Assembly: GCA_050239825.1 (NCBI GenBank)
Contig: JBFXGO010000003.1
Span: forward strand, 21,277-73,604
DNA: 52,328 nucleotides
From: a bacterium
GTDB taxonomy: Bacteria; Hydrothermota; 32-111
Direction of reading: 5' to 3'
Numbering within the stretch: the first letter of the stretch is position 1; each line of letters begins with the position of its first letter. Of the stretch, positions 18,001 through 24,000 are shown piece by piece. Made by a program: the position numbers.

Positions 18001-21000
18001 TCGTCAGAGCATTCTGCAAAATAAATCTTTTTTTGGACATTTTGGGCAAAAGAACGGACGGCTATCATGACATTCGCACAATTTTCCAGTCCGTTGACCT
18101 TTATGACGAGATGATTTTCAAGGAGAGTGAAGAGACGCTTTTACAGATATCTGACAAAACAATCTCCTTAGACATGTCAAATACTGTCATGAAGGCATTT
18201 ACACTCTTTTCGGATGAAATGACAAAGAGAAGAGAAAAAACTCAAAATTTCAGCATTATGATTGAAAAACATACGCCGGTAGGGTCCGGCATGGGAGGCG
18301 GCAGTGCTGACGGTGCGGCAACACTGAGATTTCTAAATGTGTATCACGGTCATTGCTTCTCTCAGGCCAAACTTGAGGAAATGGCATTAAAGATAGGAGC
18401 AGATACTGTTTTTCTGCTGAGAGGCGGACTTGCCTTGGGTGAGAATCTCGGCGAGAAGCTTGAGTATTTTGATATGTCGCAGATGGAAAAACTTCATCTG
18501 GCTATTGTTTATCCGAATATCCATATTTCAACAAAATGGGCTTATGACAACTATTCTAAGCACTTGACAAACAGTAAAAAATATTATAATATAAATAACT
18601 TAAAAAAAGATTTTGATGAGTTCAAAGGTTCTCTGAAATTTTCATACAATGTTTTCGAAGAGCTTGTTTATTCAAACTATCCGCGTCTTAGAGAGATAAA
18701 GGAAAAGCTTGATGCAAAAAGACCCATTCTCTCAATGATGACGGGAAGCGGATCAGCTGTATATGCTCTTTTCGAAAACAATGATATGTTTGAGTCGATA
18801 AGAAAAGAGTTCGGTGGTAACAAGCTGATTCTCACTACCCCGGTAACTCAACAACATATAAATGATGAATTTCTAACCAAACTCTAGGAGGAACGATGGA
18901 GATTACAGAAGTCAGAATCACATTAAGAGACGAACCCAAACTGAAGGCATTCGCAAATGTGACCTTTGATAATGCATTCGTAATAAGAGGGCTGAAGATT
19001 ATTGACGGCCAAAAAGGTTTATTTATATCAATGCCGTCCAGAAGAGCAAAAGACGGAACATACAGAGATATAGCCCATCCGATAAACAATGATATGAGGC
19101 AGTCTATAGAAAAAGCAGTTCTTGAGAAGTATCAGGAAGAAGTTAAAAAGCCGACAGAATAAAAATTTAATTGGGGTGTCGGCAAGCTGGCAAGCCACGG
19201 GATTTTGGTTCCCGCATTCGCAGGTTCGAATCCTGCCGCCCCAGAAAAAAAGCTATGGAAGAAAAAATGAAAATAATCGCAGGCAACTCCAACATAGGAA
19301 TTGCCAAAGACATTTCCGTTAAGCTTGGAATACCGCTTCTGGATTCAATCATTTCCCGTTTTTCCGACGGTGAAATAAGAGTTCAGATAAACGAGTCAGT
19401 GAGGGGTAACCATGTATTTGTAATACAATCCACTAACCCTCCTGCTGAGAATCTGCTTGAGATGATTTTCCTCATTGATGCATTGAAAAGGGCGTCTGCG
19501 GATATGATAACGGCTGTCTTGCCATATTACGGATATGCCAGACAAGACAAAAAAGACGCGCCGAGGGTTCCGATTACAGCGAGGGCCGTGGCTAATTTGC
19601 TTACAACTGCAGGAGTTTCGAGAGTCATGGTAATGGAGCTTCATGCAGAGCAGATTCAGGGCTTCTTCAATGTGCCGGTTGACCATCTATATTCTACACC
19701 GGTCTTTGTTGATTTTTTAAAGTCAAAAATAGACCTTGCCAACACTGTAGTTGTCTCGCCGGATGCAGGAAGGGTCAACAGAGCCCGTTCTTTCGCAAAA
19801 CGGCTGAACAATCTCCCGATAGCAATAATTGATAAGAGGCGTTCAACTCCGAACCAATCTGATGTAATGCATGTCGTGGGAGATGTTGAAGGCAAAAATG
19901 TTCTGATGGTAGATGATATAATCGACACTGCCGGAACGATAACAAAAGCGGCTCATGCTTTGAAATTTAACGGAGCAAAGCAGATTATAGCTGCAGTAAC
20001 GCACGGGCTTCTATCGGGAAACGCGATTGCGAACATCAAGGAATCTCCGATAGAGAAGCTTTACATTACAAACAGCGTAATAATTCCCGAAGAGAAAAAA
20101 ATAGACAAAATAGAGATACTCTCAGTGGCAGACCTTTTGGCAGATGCCATAAGAAGAGTTTATTGCAAAGATTCAATCAGTGTACTTTTTGATTAGGAGG
20201 AGCAATGCTACAATACGATTTACAAGTTGAAAAAAGAGAGAAGACAAACAGGCACGGGCTTAGAACGTTGCGCAACAGCGAGATGATCCCATGCGTTGCT
20301 TACGGGCACAAAGAAACCAACAGAATCTTCTCAATCAACAGTCTGGAACTGTCAAAACTGTTTCACGTAATGGGCCGTGAAAAGGCGCTTCTGAATATTT
20401 CCATTGACAAAGACAAATTCACTGCAGTCATAAAGGAGATCAAAAGAAGTCCAAGAACAAACAAGATTATACATATGGATTTTCAGATAATCCACATGGA
20501 TGAGAAGATTAAGGTGGATGTGCCTGTCCTTCTTAAGGGTTCTGCAATAGGAGTGAAGGAGGGAGGCATACTTGAACAGATTTTGAGAAAAATTGAATTG
20601 AAGTGTCTGCCGGCAAAAATTCCTTCACACATAGAAATTGACATAACCAATTTCAAAATAGGCGACTCTGTCCATGTAAAAGAGATAAAAGTTGAAGGCG
20701 CTGAAATACTAACTCATGCAGAGGAAGTCATTGTTGTTATTCTTGCGCCTAAGGTAGTGGTTGAAGAGGTCGCAAAACCCGCAGAGGAAGAGGGCAAAGA
20801 GCCTGAAGTCATCACAGAGAAGAAGCCGACTGAAGAAGAGGCCGCAGCAGAAGCAGGCAAGGGTAAGGATGACAAGAAAAAAGACGATAAGAAGAAAGAG
20901 AAAAAATAATGGTTGTATTTGTCGGGCTCGGCAATATAGGAAAGGAGTATTCAGAGACGCGGCATAATGTCGGTTTCATGCTTCTTGATGTATATGCCGG

Positions 21001-24000
21001 GAAACACAATGTTTCCTTCAGACCCGGCAAAGGCGAATTTTTTTTTGCTTCGGTTCTTTGAAAGAGAGTTTTTTGCTTATAAAACCCTCGACTTATATGA
21101 ACAACAGCGGAATTGCTGTTTTACAGGCAATGAAGCAGTTTTCATTTGAAATCGGGGATTTGATTGCTGTAGTGGACGACTTCAACATTCCTGCCGGGAC
21201 CATGCGCCTCAGGGAGAAGGGCTCCGCCGGAGGCCATAATGGCCTCAAATCCATTATTTATCATTTGGAGACGGACAACTTCGCAAGACTGAGAGTGGGA
21301 ATTGGAACCGAGAATGCTTCAAAAGACAGGGAGTTTGTGCTCTCATGCTTTGATGACCCGGCTTTGCTGAACAAAATCATTGCTGACGGTGTGGATGCAA
21401 TGGAGCGGATAGTTGAAATCGGAGTCCCAAGGGCAATGAATTTTGTCAATAAAAAAAACAGTGATACTGTAAAACAGGAGGAACAAGTTGACTAATTACG
21501 AAATTCTAATGATTGTTGATCCCTCATTGGACGACAAAGCAGTTTCCGACAAAATCGGAGTCATTAAAAAATGGATTGAAGAACTCGGCGGAGAGGTCAA
21601 ACAGGCAGACGATAAGGGTATAGATCGCCTGGCATATGAGATAAAGAAGTCCATGCAGGGCAGGTTCATCATTGCGCTTTTCTCTCTCGAACCGATAAAG
21701 GTTGACATGCTGAGAAAAGAGATAAGGCTTGATGAGCAGGTGTGGCGCTACAATATAAAGAAGCTGGCGTAAAAAGATGAGCGAGAAAATAGTAGTACCT
21801 TCGCTTAACAAGATAATCATTGCCGGACGGCTTGTAAGAGATGCTGAAAAGCGTTTTACAAGCGATAACACCGGAGTGATTTCTTTTCGTCTTGTTTCAA
21901 ACAGAAAGTATAAAGACAAAGCAGGCGAGTGGCAGGAAAATGTGCTTTTCATAAATGTTTCATATTTTGAAAAGTATTCGGACGGACTGGAGAGACGGCT
22001 GAAACAGGGAACTCCCGTAATAATAGACGGGTCTCTTGAACTTAACTCTTATGAGGATAAAAAGACTCACGAAAAAATCTCAAAGCATCAGATAAGAGCG
22101 ATGAAAATATTTGTGATATCAAGAGAGGCTGGAGATGAGACAGAGCAACCGCAGACAAAGTATGCGGATGCAAGTCAGGTTATAGACGAGGTCGACAAAG
22201 ATTTTGAGAACATAGAGGAAAATGAAAACACTGGAGGTTCAGATGGCATACCGTTCTAGAGAAGAGCAAAAAGATCAAAGAGAAGTCAAGAGAGAAAAAA
22301 AATGCAGAATATGCATAAAGAGTGATACAGTTGATTATAAAGATGTGCAATCCCTGTCAAGGTTTATGAATGACAGAGGCAAGATTCTTCCAAGAAGAGT
22401 CACAGGTCTCTGCGCCAAACATCAGAAGCTTGTCTCTGAAGGAATAAAGACAGCCCGTCAGATGTCTCTGCTTTCAAACATTGATGAAAACATAAGATAG
22501 GGGATAATATGAAAGTAATACTTAGAGAAGAAATCGCTGGAGTGGGAAAGAAGGGAGAGGTCATCAATGTGAAGACCGGTTTTGCAAGGAACTATCTTAT
22601 TCCCTCCAAGAAGGCTTATGAATCAACAGCGGGGAATCTAAAGAGGTACGAGCTTGACAAAAAACTTGATGAAGTCAGAGAAGTGAAGAACAAGCAACTG
22701 GCTGAGGAGATGGTCAAGACTCTTGCCGGAATATCCATTACCATATCTCAAAAGGCGCATGATGACGAAATGCTTTACGGTTCAGTCACTGGAGTTATGA
22801 TTGCTCACGAGCTTGAAAAATCAAATGTGAAAGTTGACAAGAGCTCCGTACTTCTCGATGAGCCTATAAAAAAACTCGGTTTTTACACTGTGAGTGTAAG
22901 GTTACACCCGGAAGTTACCGGCGAGGTAAAGGTCTGGGTTGTAAAAGATGAATAGTCTTTTCCCTGACAAGAATCTTATTATAATTCTCCTATTAGGCCA
23001 CCTAATAGGAGATTTTATTTTTCAGACCAATAACGTATTTAAATTCAAAATCAAAGGGACTGCAGGAATACTATGGCACTCATTTCTTGTCGGAGTAGCT
23101 ACATTTACAGCTCTATTTACTTTTTCTGAAAGTTTTCTTCTGATATTTTCAGCCTCTATCATACTGTTTGTTTTTCATTTTCTTATAGACATTGCCAAAT
23201 ACAAAAGCAGGATAGAGGAGGCGGTCACATTCATGCTTGATCAGCTGGCGCATATAATTTCAATACTTATATGCTCTATAGTGCTGAAAAATGCAGTCAG
23301 TGCAAGCTTTAGAAATACTGTTCACATAAGATATGCAGTCTATCTTATAGCAATGATTGTCATACTCTATTTCCTCAAATATTTCATAAAGAGTCTCTAC
23401 AGAATTCTTGACATAAAAGACGCTGCCTCTAAATGGTATTCGTTTATGGAGAGCGCAGAGAGGTTCATAATATTTTACTTTTCATATATGCATGGATTTT
23501 ATTTTCTTTTGATAGCATTTGCGGTTATTCCAAGAAGTCTCTACGCGATCAACACAAACAAACAGCATATCTTCTATGATATCATAATCTCAATGCTTAT
23601 CTCATCAGGAGCTGGCATAGTTTTCAGGAAAGCAACAATTCTTGAGCCATTCACAGGTATTCAGTTTCTTTTTCTGTCGATTGTTTTCTTTGCATCCGCC
23701 TTCATTATTGAAAAGGCGGTTGACCTTCTGACTCTGCCATTGAACAAGCACTCTCATATCTCTTGACTTTAATTTTTAATATGATATTTTATTGACTGAA
23801 CTTTAAAACAAGGAGTCTTAATCTATGAAAAAATCAAATAAATTCTATGCTGTTGAAAAAAAGTACGGCGCAAACAATTATCATCCCCTTGATGTCTGCC
23901 TCTCAAAAGGAAAGGGTATTTGGGTATGGGACGCAGACGGCAAAAAGTATCTTGATTTTCTAAGCTCATACTCGGCTGTCAATCAGGGTCACTGCCATCC

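Follow-up and report, generated by a model that had tools for sequence, protein, structure and literature searches.

Frame breaks at long homopolymers that are repaired by recoding are a kind already known, and mxiE, Thermus dnaX and Blochmannia pth are the closest described systems. The run in mxiE consists of nine T. Passages of PMC1088944 state that a single non-templated nucleotide has to be added at a U run of mxiE, and the parts of PMC5009743 and PMC1088944 that deal with the gene describe two overlapping ORFs, a functional longer product and no requirement for RNA structure. The dnaX gene of Thermus thermophilus carries A9 and gives a mixed mRNA population, according to a passage of PMC1088944. 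For Blochmannia vafer, sections of Williams and Wernegreen 2010 (PMC3017870) report a pth gene with a homopolymer indel, for which rescue by transcriptional slippage was proposed. The same sections portray Blochmannia genomes as strongly AT-biased and eroding: 114-153 long poly(A) tracts lie within their genes, and 4-8 genes are frameshifted. Some poly(A) frameshifts of endosymbionts are shared between species; of the three genomes that were compared, only that of B. vafer has the pth break. The -1 ribosomal frameshifting sites of E. coli dnaX and of IS3 are described in parts of PMC3711429 and PMC5009743 as being stimulated by an SD-like element upstream and by a hairpin or pseudoknot downstream, and the former source also mentions the prfB frameshift.

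We analyzed a window of 52,328 nucleotides from contig JBFXGO010000003.1 of a bacterium (genome G000) that belongs to family 32-111 (f1), uncultured WOR-3 bacteria with 14 genomes in 5 genera. All features described here lie on the plus strand. The pth gene starts with an ATG at 20909, directly downstream of rplY/ctc for ribosomal protein L25/TL5 (20205..20909; PF01386, PF14693), and at the junction TAATG the L25 stop TAA (20907-20909) shares one base with the pth ATG. The gene order prs-L25-pth is common to families with split and with intact pth. The frame-0 part of 50 codons (20909..21061) matches PF01195 positions 2-38 (E 5.5e-13), contains the GLGN and RHN (catalytic His) motifs and ends in ...GKGEFFFASVL-stop. 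The shift site is a T9 run in codon phase (TTT TTT TTT, read as FFF; 21038..21046); the frame-0 stop TGA (21059..21061) follows 12 nt downstream and overlaps a -1-frame TTG (21058-21060) as TTGA. The -1-frame part (21046..21495) extends from codon TGC at 21046 to the stop TAA at 21493-21495, matches PF01195 positions 51-183 (E 2.8e-38), reads ...CFGSLKESFLLIKPSTYMNNSG... and includes the DD and GGHNG motifs; this frame is stop-free from 20989 to its stop. The last 8 nt of pth also belong to rpsF for ribosomal protein S6 (21488..21772; PF01250), which starts with TTG. Both pieces pass the curated Pth1 cut-off of 27 bits for PF01195 (model length 183), with 49.6 bits for the N-terminal piece and 132.1 bits for the -1 frame. 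There is a single Pth1 locus in the source genome, which is 98.97% complete, and a profile search of this genome found no Pth2 (PF01981). The genome-wide survey's note had described the sole pth gene as split into a 50-codon N-terminal frame with the catalytic His and a C-terminal part at -1, and the coordinates, the profile matches and the locus count agree with this description.

Two PF01195 matches in different frames are present in all 14 genomes of the family, across five genera, and in each of them T9 stands in phase with the continuation at -1. The survey's claim that the whole family shares the break at the T run is thereby confirmed; of its "nine or ten T", nine holds for all 14 genomes, and the apparent T10 of two (G008 and G009) is TCT followed by T9. 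The frame-0 stop lies 3-54 nt past the run; the -1 frame is open from 1-49 nt ahead of it, the tightest bracket being the 1 nt upstream of T9 in G010 and G012. All nine T are unchanged in the 14 genomes although synonymous sites are near saturation (dS 0.26-2.2, even within genera). Only one of 105 FFF tripeptides in G000 ORFs of at least 200 aa is spelled as T9, against about 19% expected from codon usage (TTT fraction 0.574). Because synonymous sites are nearly saturated and this spelling of FFF is rare, we judge the conservation of T9 to be beyond chance. T9 was also found in three of three metagenome pth matches, retrieved with a search pattern that left the run out.

The survey had found the break in no other family of the phylum. 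This is contradicted by family f29, where pth is broken at A9, at a different site in the gene and again with a -1 shift needed, in all five genomes from two genera. The f29 junction TTA AAA AAA AAT reads L-K-K-K-F after the shift, and in G121 and G122 the shift window spans just 16 nt, bounded by a TGA of the -1 frame and the TGA of frame 0. The A9 break is new here and is an independent second origin of split pth. As the survey had stated for the sister family of 32-111, pth is intact in the sister families of both f1 and f29, and the runs there are shorter; at the corresponding sites we find at most T7 in f2, and T8 and A4-A5 in f20.

The read-through Pth is 195 aa long in the source genome and 184-195 aa across the family. 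When compared with 35 intact Pth, the read-through products of the 14 f1 and five f29 genomes are colinear and gap-free at the junction and keep the motifs GLGN, R/K-HN, YMNxSG, DD, GGHxG and RLRxGIG, whose residues, including the catalytic His, have functional roles known from E. coli. Both halves of the gene are under purifying selection, with dN/dS of 0.05-0.41 in the N-terminal and 0.05-0.20 in the C-terminal part (dS 0.26-2.2). In a search of 5.8 billion proteins, each of the 13 closest public clusters (49-78% identity) is a C-terminal fragment of 126-144 aa, and no full-length protein above 54% identity was found in public clusters. Neither the 19 genomes of the two families nor the closest clusters of that search contain an in-frame pth allele. 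Inserting one base into a run of 9 nt is an easy mutational step, and the absence of such an insertion from these genomes and proteins suggests that the out-of-frame state itself is selected. The observations support a conserved and selected recoding site in the sole pth gene, rather than an error or a pseudogene, and recoding at the run, by whichever route, is very probable. Where the survey held that full-length Pth is made only through slippage at the run, conserved recoding is thus supported, and the part played by RNA polymerase as opposed to the ribosome is what we infer. Gene callers give just the C-terminal Pth fragment of 126-144 aa for these organisms, so that pth looks truncated in WOR-3 genomes; marker-gene and essential-gene inferences, and annotations, should treat WOR-3 pth as a recoded gene.

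Homopolymer runs were counted on the sense strand of 1422 ORFs of at least 200 aa in one genome, G000, against 30 synonymous shuffles. The observed-to-expected ratio of T runs is 0.96 at 7 nt, 0.78 at 8 nt and 0.24 at 9 nt, with no run of at least 10 nt observed and 12.8 expected. For A runs the ratio is 1.21, 0.94 and 0.37 at the same lengths, with one run of at least 10 nt against 47.8 expected. Ratios for A/T runs of 6-8 nt stay within 0.78-1.21, and the sharp fall at 9 nt is seen in all three codon phases. No avoidance of in-phase slippery heptamers was detected in these ORFs: phase 2 has 108 T7 where 97 are expected and 340 A7 where 201 are expected. Selection against slippage-prone runs in coding DNA, the criterion of Baranov 2005, is thus seen in G000. 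A threshold of nine nucleotides for such selection is given for many genomes in a passage of PMC1088944, which adds the caveat that also applies here: the depletion of 9-nt runs could instead stem from replication slippage. The phase-independent threshold at 9 nt provides a means of arguing polymerase versus ribosome from sequence alone. The 2.1-Mb genome has 39.8% GC and 56 A/T runs of at least 9 nt. Among 62 candidate frame-pair junctions at runs of at least 8 nt (58 run-strand sites), three are credible, namely those of pth, of an IS3 transposase and of one accessory gene for an ABC ATPase.

Set beside the described systems, pth resembles mxiE in its overlapping ORFs, in the single extra nucleotide that a U run would gain and in the apparent dispensability of RNA structure, as far as passages of PMC1088944 and PMC5009743 describe mxiE. 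However, mxiE is a plasmid-borne virulence regulator of one genus, and pth is a core translation-recycling enzyme broken in five genera and with two origins. Thermus dnaX, in passages of PMC1088944, shares the 9-nt homopolymer in a housekeeping gene. In dnaX, the full-length product comes from the templated frame and a shorter second subunit from slippage, whereas the templated frame of pth is a dead end and slippage would be obligatory. In Blochmannia the same gene is broken at a homopolymer, but the break in G000 is family-wide and convergent, and in contrast to AT-biased Blochmannia the genome has 39.8% GC and avoids 9-nt runs in its ORFs. A tolerated poly(A) frameshift of the endosymbiont type was considered as well and does not fit this depletion, the GC content and the mere three credible junctions. 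It is rare, prfB apart, for a core single-copy translation factor to depend on obligatory recoding; rarer still is a break that has persisted while five genera diverged and that was reinvented in a second family. The locus lends itself, as a natural system, to the question of why a cell would throttle its Pth.

We lean, with modest confidence, towards RNA-polymerase slippage that would add one U at the run as the likeliest route, ahead of ribosomal frameshifting. The gene would be functional, essential and deliberately out of frame, with full-length Pth made only after a one-base register shift at T9. While the nine-A template tract is copied, the nascent U run would realign by one position within the ~9-bp hybrid and an extra U would be added. 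Transcripts with U10 would encode GKGEFFF-C-FGSLKES... in a single frame; those left unslipped at U9 would yield only an N-terminal fragment of 47-63 aa, with the stop 3-54 nt past the run. The same mechanism would act on A9 in f29. On runs of 9 nt bacterial RNA polymerase slips efficiently, and a conserved homopolymer of about this length or more at the frame junction, a feature of programmed transcriptional slippage, is present in both families (T9 in 14 of 14 genomes, A9 in five of five). We favor the polymerase because both origins are exactly 9 nt long, because avoidance starts at 9 nt in every phase while in-phase heptamers are tolerated, and because no conserved stimulatory RNA structure was found. 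Since a heptamer followed by the conserved Phe gives nine T automatically in f1, the argument from length rests mostly on f29 and on the run census of G000. On these grounds we infer a slip during transcription rather than translation. The out-of-frame state itself would be under selection, probably because it holds the yield of Pth at a low, constant level within an operon of ribosomal proteins.

Programmed -1 ribosomal frameshifting on the unaltered U9 mRNA, with P- and A-site tRNA-Phe (tRNA-Lys in f29) both re-pairing one base back and translation continuing in the -1 frame, would make the same protein as transcriptional slippage; we consider it unlikely, though possible. As in E. coli dnaX and IS3, X_XXY_YYZ heptamers stand in frame-0 phase (U_UUU_UUU in f1, A_AAA_AAA in f29) with a -1 continuation, and the IS3-type transposase of G000, of a class known for recoding, has its orfA and orfB overlapping at -1 on A9. 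The stimulators of the E. coli dnaX and IS3 sites, by contrast, have no conserved counterpart at pth of either family. An AAAGG lies 4 nt upstream of T9, but it forms the codons of the GKG motif and occurs in intact families as well; otherwise, neither a conserved hairpin nor an SD-like stimulator was found at T9 or A9 in the f1 and f29 alignments, with folds that covered pseudoknot-free structures. Downstream of T9, RNAalifold detects no conserved stimulator (consensus -1.64 kcal/mol, five pairs ~50 nt downstream), the single-sequence fold of G000 has z = -1.27, and the covariation term of the f29 consensus fold is unfavorable. Further points against the ribosomal route are that G000 ORFs do not avoid T7 and A7 in phase and avoid 9-nt runs in every phase, and that the last two A of the f29 run are superfluous for a tandem slip, yet present in all five genomes. 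The survey's idea of autoregulation has its model in prfB, likewise a translation factor whose synthesis needs a frameshift. There, the ribosome shifts by +1 at an in-frame UGA, and since RF2 itself reads this UGA, feedback is built into the site. A putative feedback sensor at pth, with the run as a gauge of Pth activity, would require the ribosomal route and appears improbable: low Pth would raise peptidyl-tRNA and lower charged tRNA, stalling ribosomes on the Phe (f1) or Lys (f29) run, and the stalled ribosomes would slip to -1 more often and restore Pth. The f29 site consists of three AAA Lys codons, and tRNA-Lys is the growth-limiting tRNA species in Pth-deficient E. coli; the reference list of PMC8012679 includes a title that points to this limitation. 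Unlike prfB, however, pth has no element that is read by Pth, and the frame-0 codon past the run is not conserved (an Ala, Leu or Val codon in f1), which also speaks against the ribosomal route in general. If the sensor were real, two origins on single-codon runs in a tRNA-recycling gene would be design, not accident.

That no recoding takes place is the least probable reading. Homopolymers are hypermutable and error-prone and the run length is known from contig-level data, so a miscalled run, T9/T10 phase variation by replication slippage or a decaying gene come to mind. A miscall is opposed by 19 concurring assemblies and three metagenome contigs retrieved irrespective of the run, by the 9-nt A/T runs inside other long G000 ORFs, which stay in frame, and by a Logan contig (depth 20.6) that has T9 without an indel, although the source run is possibly its origin. 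Decay is at odds with purifying selection on both halves across saturated dS and with the lack of a second pth or of Pth2 in the source genome, and phase variation would leave an essential gene with a majority OFF allele in every lineage, which is not viable without recoding. Hardly more probable is a split enzyme, cut in a beta-hairpin turn, whose second piece would arise by termination at the frame-0 stop and reinitiation (TTGA or ATGA), or from an independent -1-frame start; the two polypeptides would then assemble into active Pth. A TTG overlaps the frame-0 TGA 11 nt past the run in all nine genomes of genera g1 and g2, where the 13-mer GTTCTTTGAAAGA around this stop is invariant, and in f29 an ATG lies 3-6 nt past A9 in five of five genomes, as ATGA in three. 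These overlaps leave some room for termination-reinitiation. However, G007 (genus g3) has no -1-frame ATG, GTG or TTG between the run and the YMN motif, and this stretch encodes the conserved ...LVLVKPTTY in the -1 frame only; in g4 and g5 a stop-start overlap is absent at any usable place. A usable start of the second piece near the stop of the first is thus not common to all members among the 19 genomes. The split also leaves unexplained the invariance of nine T at saturated synonymous sites and the two origins on 9-nt runs. In none of the 19 genomes is the -1-frame start closest to the run preceded by an SD-like motif. In G123, a GAGG is located ahead of a second TTG, 24 nt past its run.

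The single pth (Pth1) gene of the window extends on the forward strand from an ATG at 20909 to 21495 and is packed between two ribosomal-protein genes of the same strand, rplY/ctc (L25; 20205-20909) on its 5' side and rpsF (S6; 21488-21772) on its 3' side. The stop of L25 and the ATG of pth overlap as TAATG (20907-20911), and the TTG start of S6 sits 8 nt inside the 3' end of pth (21488-21495). Translation in the frame of the ATG (frame 0) gives MVVFVGLGNIGKEYSETRHNVGF...GKGEFFF, with TTT TTT TTT at 21038-21046, and ends at a TGA at 21059-21061. The rest of the protein (…CFGSLKESFLLIKPSTYMNNSG…GGHNG…) can be read in the -1 frame alone, which stays open as far as 21495. 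In a Pfam search, the N-terminal piece matches positions 2-38 of the 183-position PF01195 model and the -1 frame matches positions 51-183. Neither a second Pth1 locus nor a Pth2 was found in the whole genome (G000; 2.1 Mb, 67 contigs, 98.97% complete).

The genome-wide survey's note had described this sole pth as broken at a T run, with a -1 continuation, in all 14 genomes of family 32-111. Locus parsing bears this out: the continuation after the run is -1 in every genome, and two PF01195 matches in different frames are present in 14 of 14 genomes, representing five genera (g1-g5). Of the runs, described as nine or ten T, 12 are T9 in phase 0; in the two genomes with T10 (G008 and G009) the extra T is the final base of a preceding TCT, followed by TTT TTT TTT still in phase. 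The frame-0 stop falls 3-54 nt past the run, and the -1 frame opens 1-49 nt ahead of it. When one base is repeated to join the two frames, the products are 184-195 aa long and align to 35 intact Pth proteins of the phylum gap-free at the junction and with every conserved motif kept. Identity between genera is 42-63% in the N-terminal half and 34-52% in the C-terminal half; within genera, dN/dS is 0.05-0.41 and 0.05-0.20, respectively, at dS of 0.26-2.2. Both halves are under purifying selection, and it follows that the gene is used on either side of the break. The nine T have remained unchanged while synonymous sites turned over.

The split is not an artefact. A Logan contig from run X1, possibly the source sample, has T9 without an indel at a depth of 20.6; contigs of runs X2 and X3 match short stretches of the locus away from the T run, and those of X4 match none of it. 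A look for RNA runs that contain the locus found none. A metagenome search with a pattern that leaves out the run returned three pth contigs, all with T9 and possibly source assemblies of the same genomes, and two chance matches. Among 5.8 billion proteins searched, the 13 closest clusters (from NCBI, JGI, ENA and Logan) are 49-78% identical, and each is a fragment 126-144 aa long; among proteins of at least 185 aa, the nearest share at most 54% identity, and the junction sequences differ in the six inspected. The idea of a genome full of homopolymer frameshifts was rejected: other 9-nt A/T runs inside long ORFs of G000 stay in frame, and of the 62 candidate frame pairs at runs of at least 8 nt (58 run-strand sites), the majority turn out to be either normal neighbouring genes or spurious ORFs.

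We analyzed 121 genomes of the phylum, 117 of which have a pth match; the remaining four are 81-94% complete. A single PF01195 match is found in 101 genomes outside family 32-111, spanning model position ≤3 to ≥159 in 100 of them and only 3-122 in G102. In a second family, f29, two of the genomes sampled have a split gene, with the split close to model position 75, and in the order of this family all five f29 genomes (two genera) proved to be split, contrary to the earlier claim that the break is absent outside family 32-111. Here A9, 35 nt past the conserved YMN motif, is the site of the break, and a -1 shift is required in 5/5 genomes (frame 0 TTA AAA AAA AAT to -1 frame AAA AAA AAA TTT); the split loci include G084:C1:239000-241800 (L059) and G107:C44:2000-4700 (L060), both on the minus strand, and L066-L070. 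In G121 and G122 the usable shift window is 16 nt, bounded by a -1-frame TGA and a frame-0 TGA. The sister family f20 has one full-length match in five of six genomes, the sixth lacking a match. Runs at the two sites are shorter in the intact sister families: at most T7 in the sister family of 32-111, and T8 and A4-A5 in f20. Eighty loci fetched from other genomes included two members of family 32-111 with T9; a motif test found 73 of the other 78 intact and none split, and five were not classed by the script.

Recoding at the run, by one route or another, is highly probable, and slippage of RNA polymerase is, on sequence grounds, somewhat favoured as the route. Both origins have a run of exactly 9 nt (T9 and A9). 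According to PMC5009743 and PMC1088944, this length lets the RNA polymerase of bacteria slip with high efficiency, and it is where many genomes begin to show selection against runs. We compared sense-strand runs in the 1422 ORFs of G000 of at least 200 aa with 30 synonymous-codon shuffles. Observed/expected ratios for runs of 6, 7, 8 and 9 nt are 1.16, 0.96, 0.78 and 0.24 for T, and 1.15, 1.21, 0.94 and 0.37 for A; at 10 nt or more, 0 T runs are observed versus 12.8 expected, and 1 A run versus 47.8. Codon usage predicts T9 as the spelling of about 19% of FFF tripeptides, but only 1 of 105 has it. Ribosomal -1 frameshifting on the run is a rather unlikely alternative. Four points weigh against the polymerase: the runs form perfect X_XXY_YYZ heptamers in the correct phase; in family 32-111 such a heptamer together with a conserved Phe already gives nine T; the scarcity of 9-nt runs could be due to slippage in replication; and the 9-nt threshold was tested in G000 alone. 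Against the ribosomal route, the drop at 9 nt in G000 occurs in each of the three codon phases, while in-phase slippery heptamers are not avoided (T7 from codon position 3, 108 versus 97 expected; A7, 340 versus 201). Moreover, no conserved RNA structure was found 3' of the run, and the frame-0 codon after it varies within family 32-111 (GCT/GCG, CTG, GTG, GCA/GTA, GTT). An AAAGG stretch 5' of the run corresponds to the GKG codons and is common to intact relatives.

Production of Pth as two polypeptides, with the cut falling in a beta-hairpin turn, appears very improbable. A TTGA stop-start overlap does lie just past the run in nine genomes of g1 and g2, as does an ATGA overlap in three of five f29 genomes, all five of which have an ATG 3-6 nt past A9; usable overlaps are, however, absent in g4 and g5. 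In G007 no ATG, GTG or TTG occurs from the run to YMN, yet this interval encodes the conserved LVLVKPTTY stretch, and does so in the -1 frame alone. None of the 19 split genomes has a Shine-Dalgarno-like motif ahead of the -1-frame start nearest the run (a GAGG in G123 precedes a second, later TTG), and a split enzyme gives no reason for an invariant nine T or nine A. The 13-mer GTTCTTTGAAAGA (21053-21065), which contains the frame-0 TGA overlapping the -1-frame TTG, is identical in these nine genomes of g1 and g2 when compared at aligned positions in L004, L005 and L008-L013, even though synonymous sites on either side of it differ; possible roles are a signal for reinitiation and a constraint imposed by the two frames.

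Insertion of one base, a change that a 9-nt run acquires easily, would put the gene back in frame. Since all 19 split genomes nonetheless lack it despite divergence that has reached saturation, the out-of-frame state is probably selected, not merely tolerated. The gene belongs to a prs-L25-pth(-S6-ssb-S18) cluster, in which pth has stop-start overlaps with both of its neighbours; if slippage supplied a low and constant yield, the amount of this low-abundance enzyme would no longer follow that of the ribosomal proteins. The order prs-L25-pth is identical in split and intact families, and therefore context alone fails to explain the break. The survey's observation is confirmed and extended, and its interpretation partly supported: its idea of a feedback sensor of Pth activity, which requires the ribosomal route, finds no support here. 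The Lys codons at the f29 site hint at such a sensor only in the light of work on tRNA-Lys starvation in E. coli.

Transcriptional slippage is an established class that includes mxiE, Thermus dnaX and IS elements (PMC1088944). In Blochmannia vafer, pth is frameshifted in a poly(A) tract, and transcriptional slippage was proposed (PMC3017870). By contrast, G000 has 39.8% GC, avoids such runs and contains few further junctions of this kind; the break is kept across five genera of family 32-111 and has a convergent second origin in f29. Our literature search found no pth frameshift outside Blochmannia and no description of the present case; neither 'pth' nor 'peptidyl-tRNA hydrolase' is mentioned in the available portion of a recoding review (PMC5009743) or in the main text and two of three supplement files of PMC3711429.

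Several further runs were observed outside the window. In an IS3-type transposase of G000, orfA (HTH_Tnp_1) and orfB (rve) overlap at -1 on A9 (C49:1027-1035; L074:528-536), so that this genome also holds a classic layout for recoding. Also in G000, a 217-aa ABC-transporter ATPase ORF (PF00005) ends five codons past A9 (C50:34804-34812; L073:805-813), and an 82-aa ORF without a Pfam match continues at +1; a search of the 13 other genomes of family 32-111 with this one query gave no match. This junction may be a second homopolymer frameshift. Long G/C runs are rare in G000: G11 at C30:14382-14392, G9 at C54:3048-3056 and C9 at C48:32465-32473. In several Ignavibacteria and Melioribacter relatives, the intact pth contains an in-frame T9 (L086, L090 and L116, at ...FFLVKP) or A9 (L089 and L100, the latter with two runs). 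If the polymerase slips, some in-frame transcripts would be lost at these runs, and it may be that pth more generally tolerates or makes use of them.
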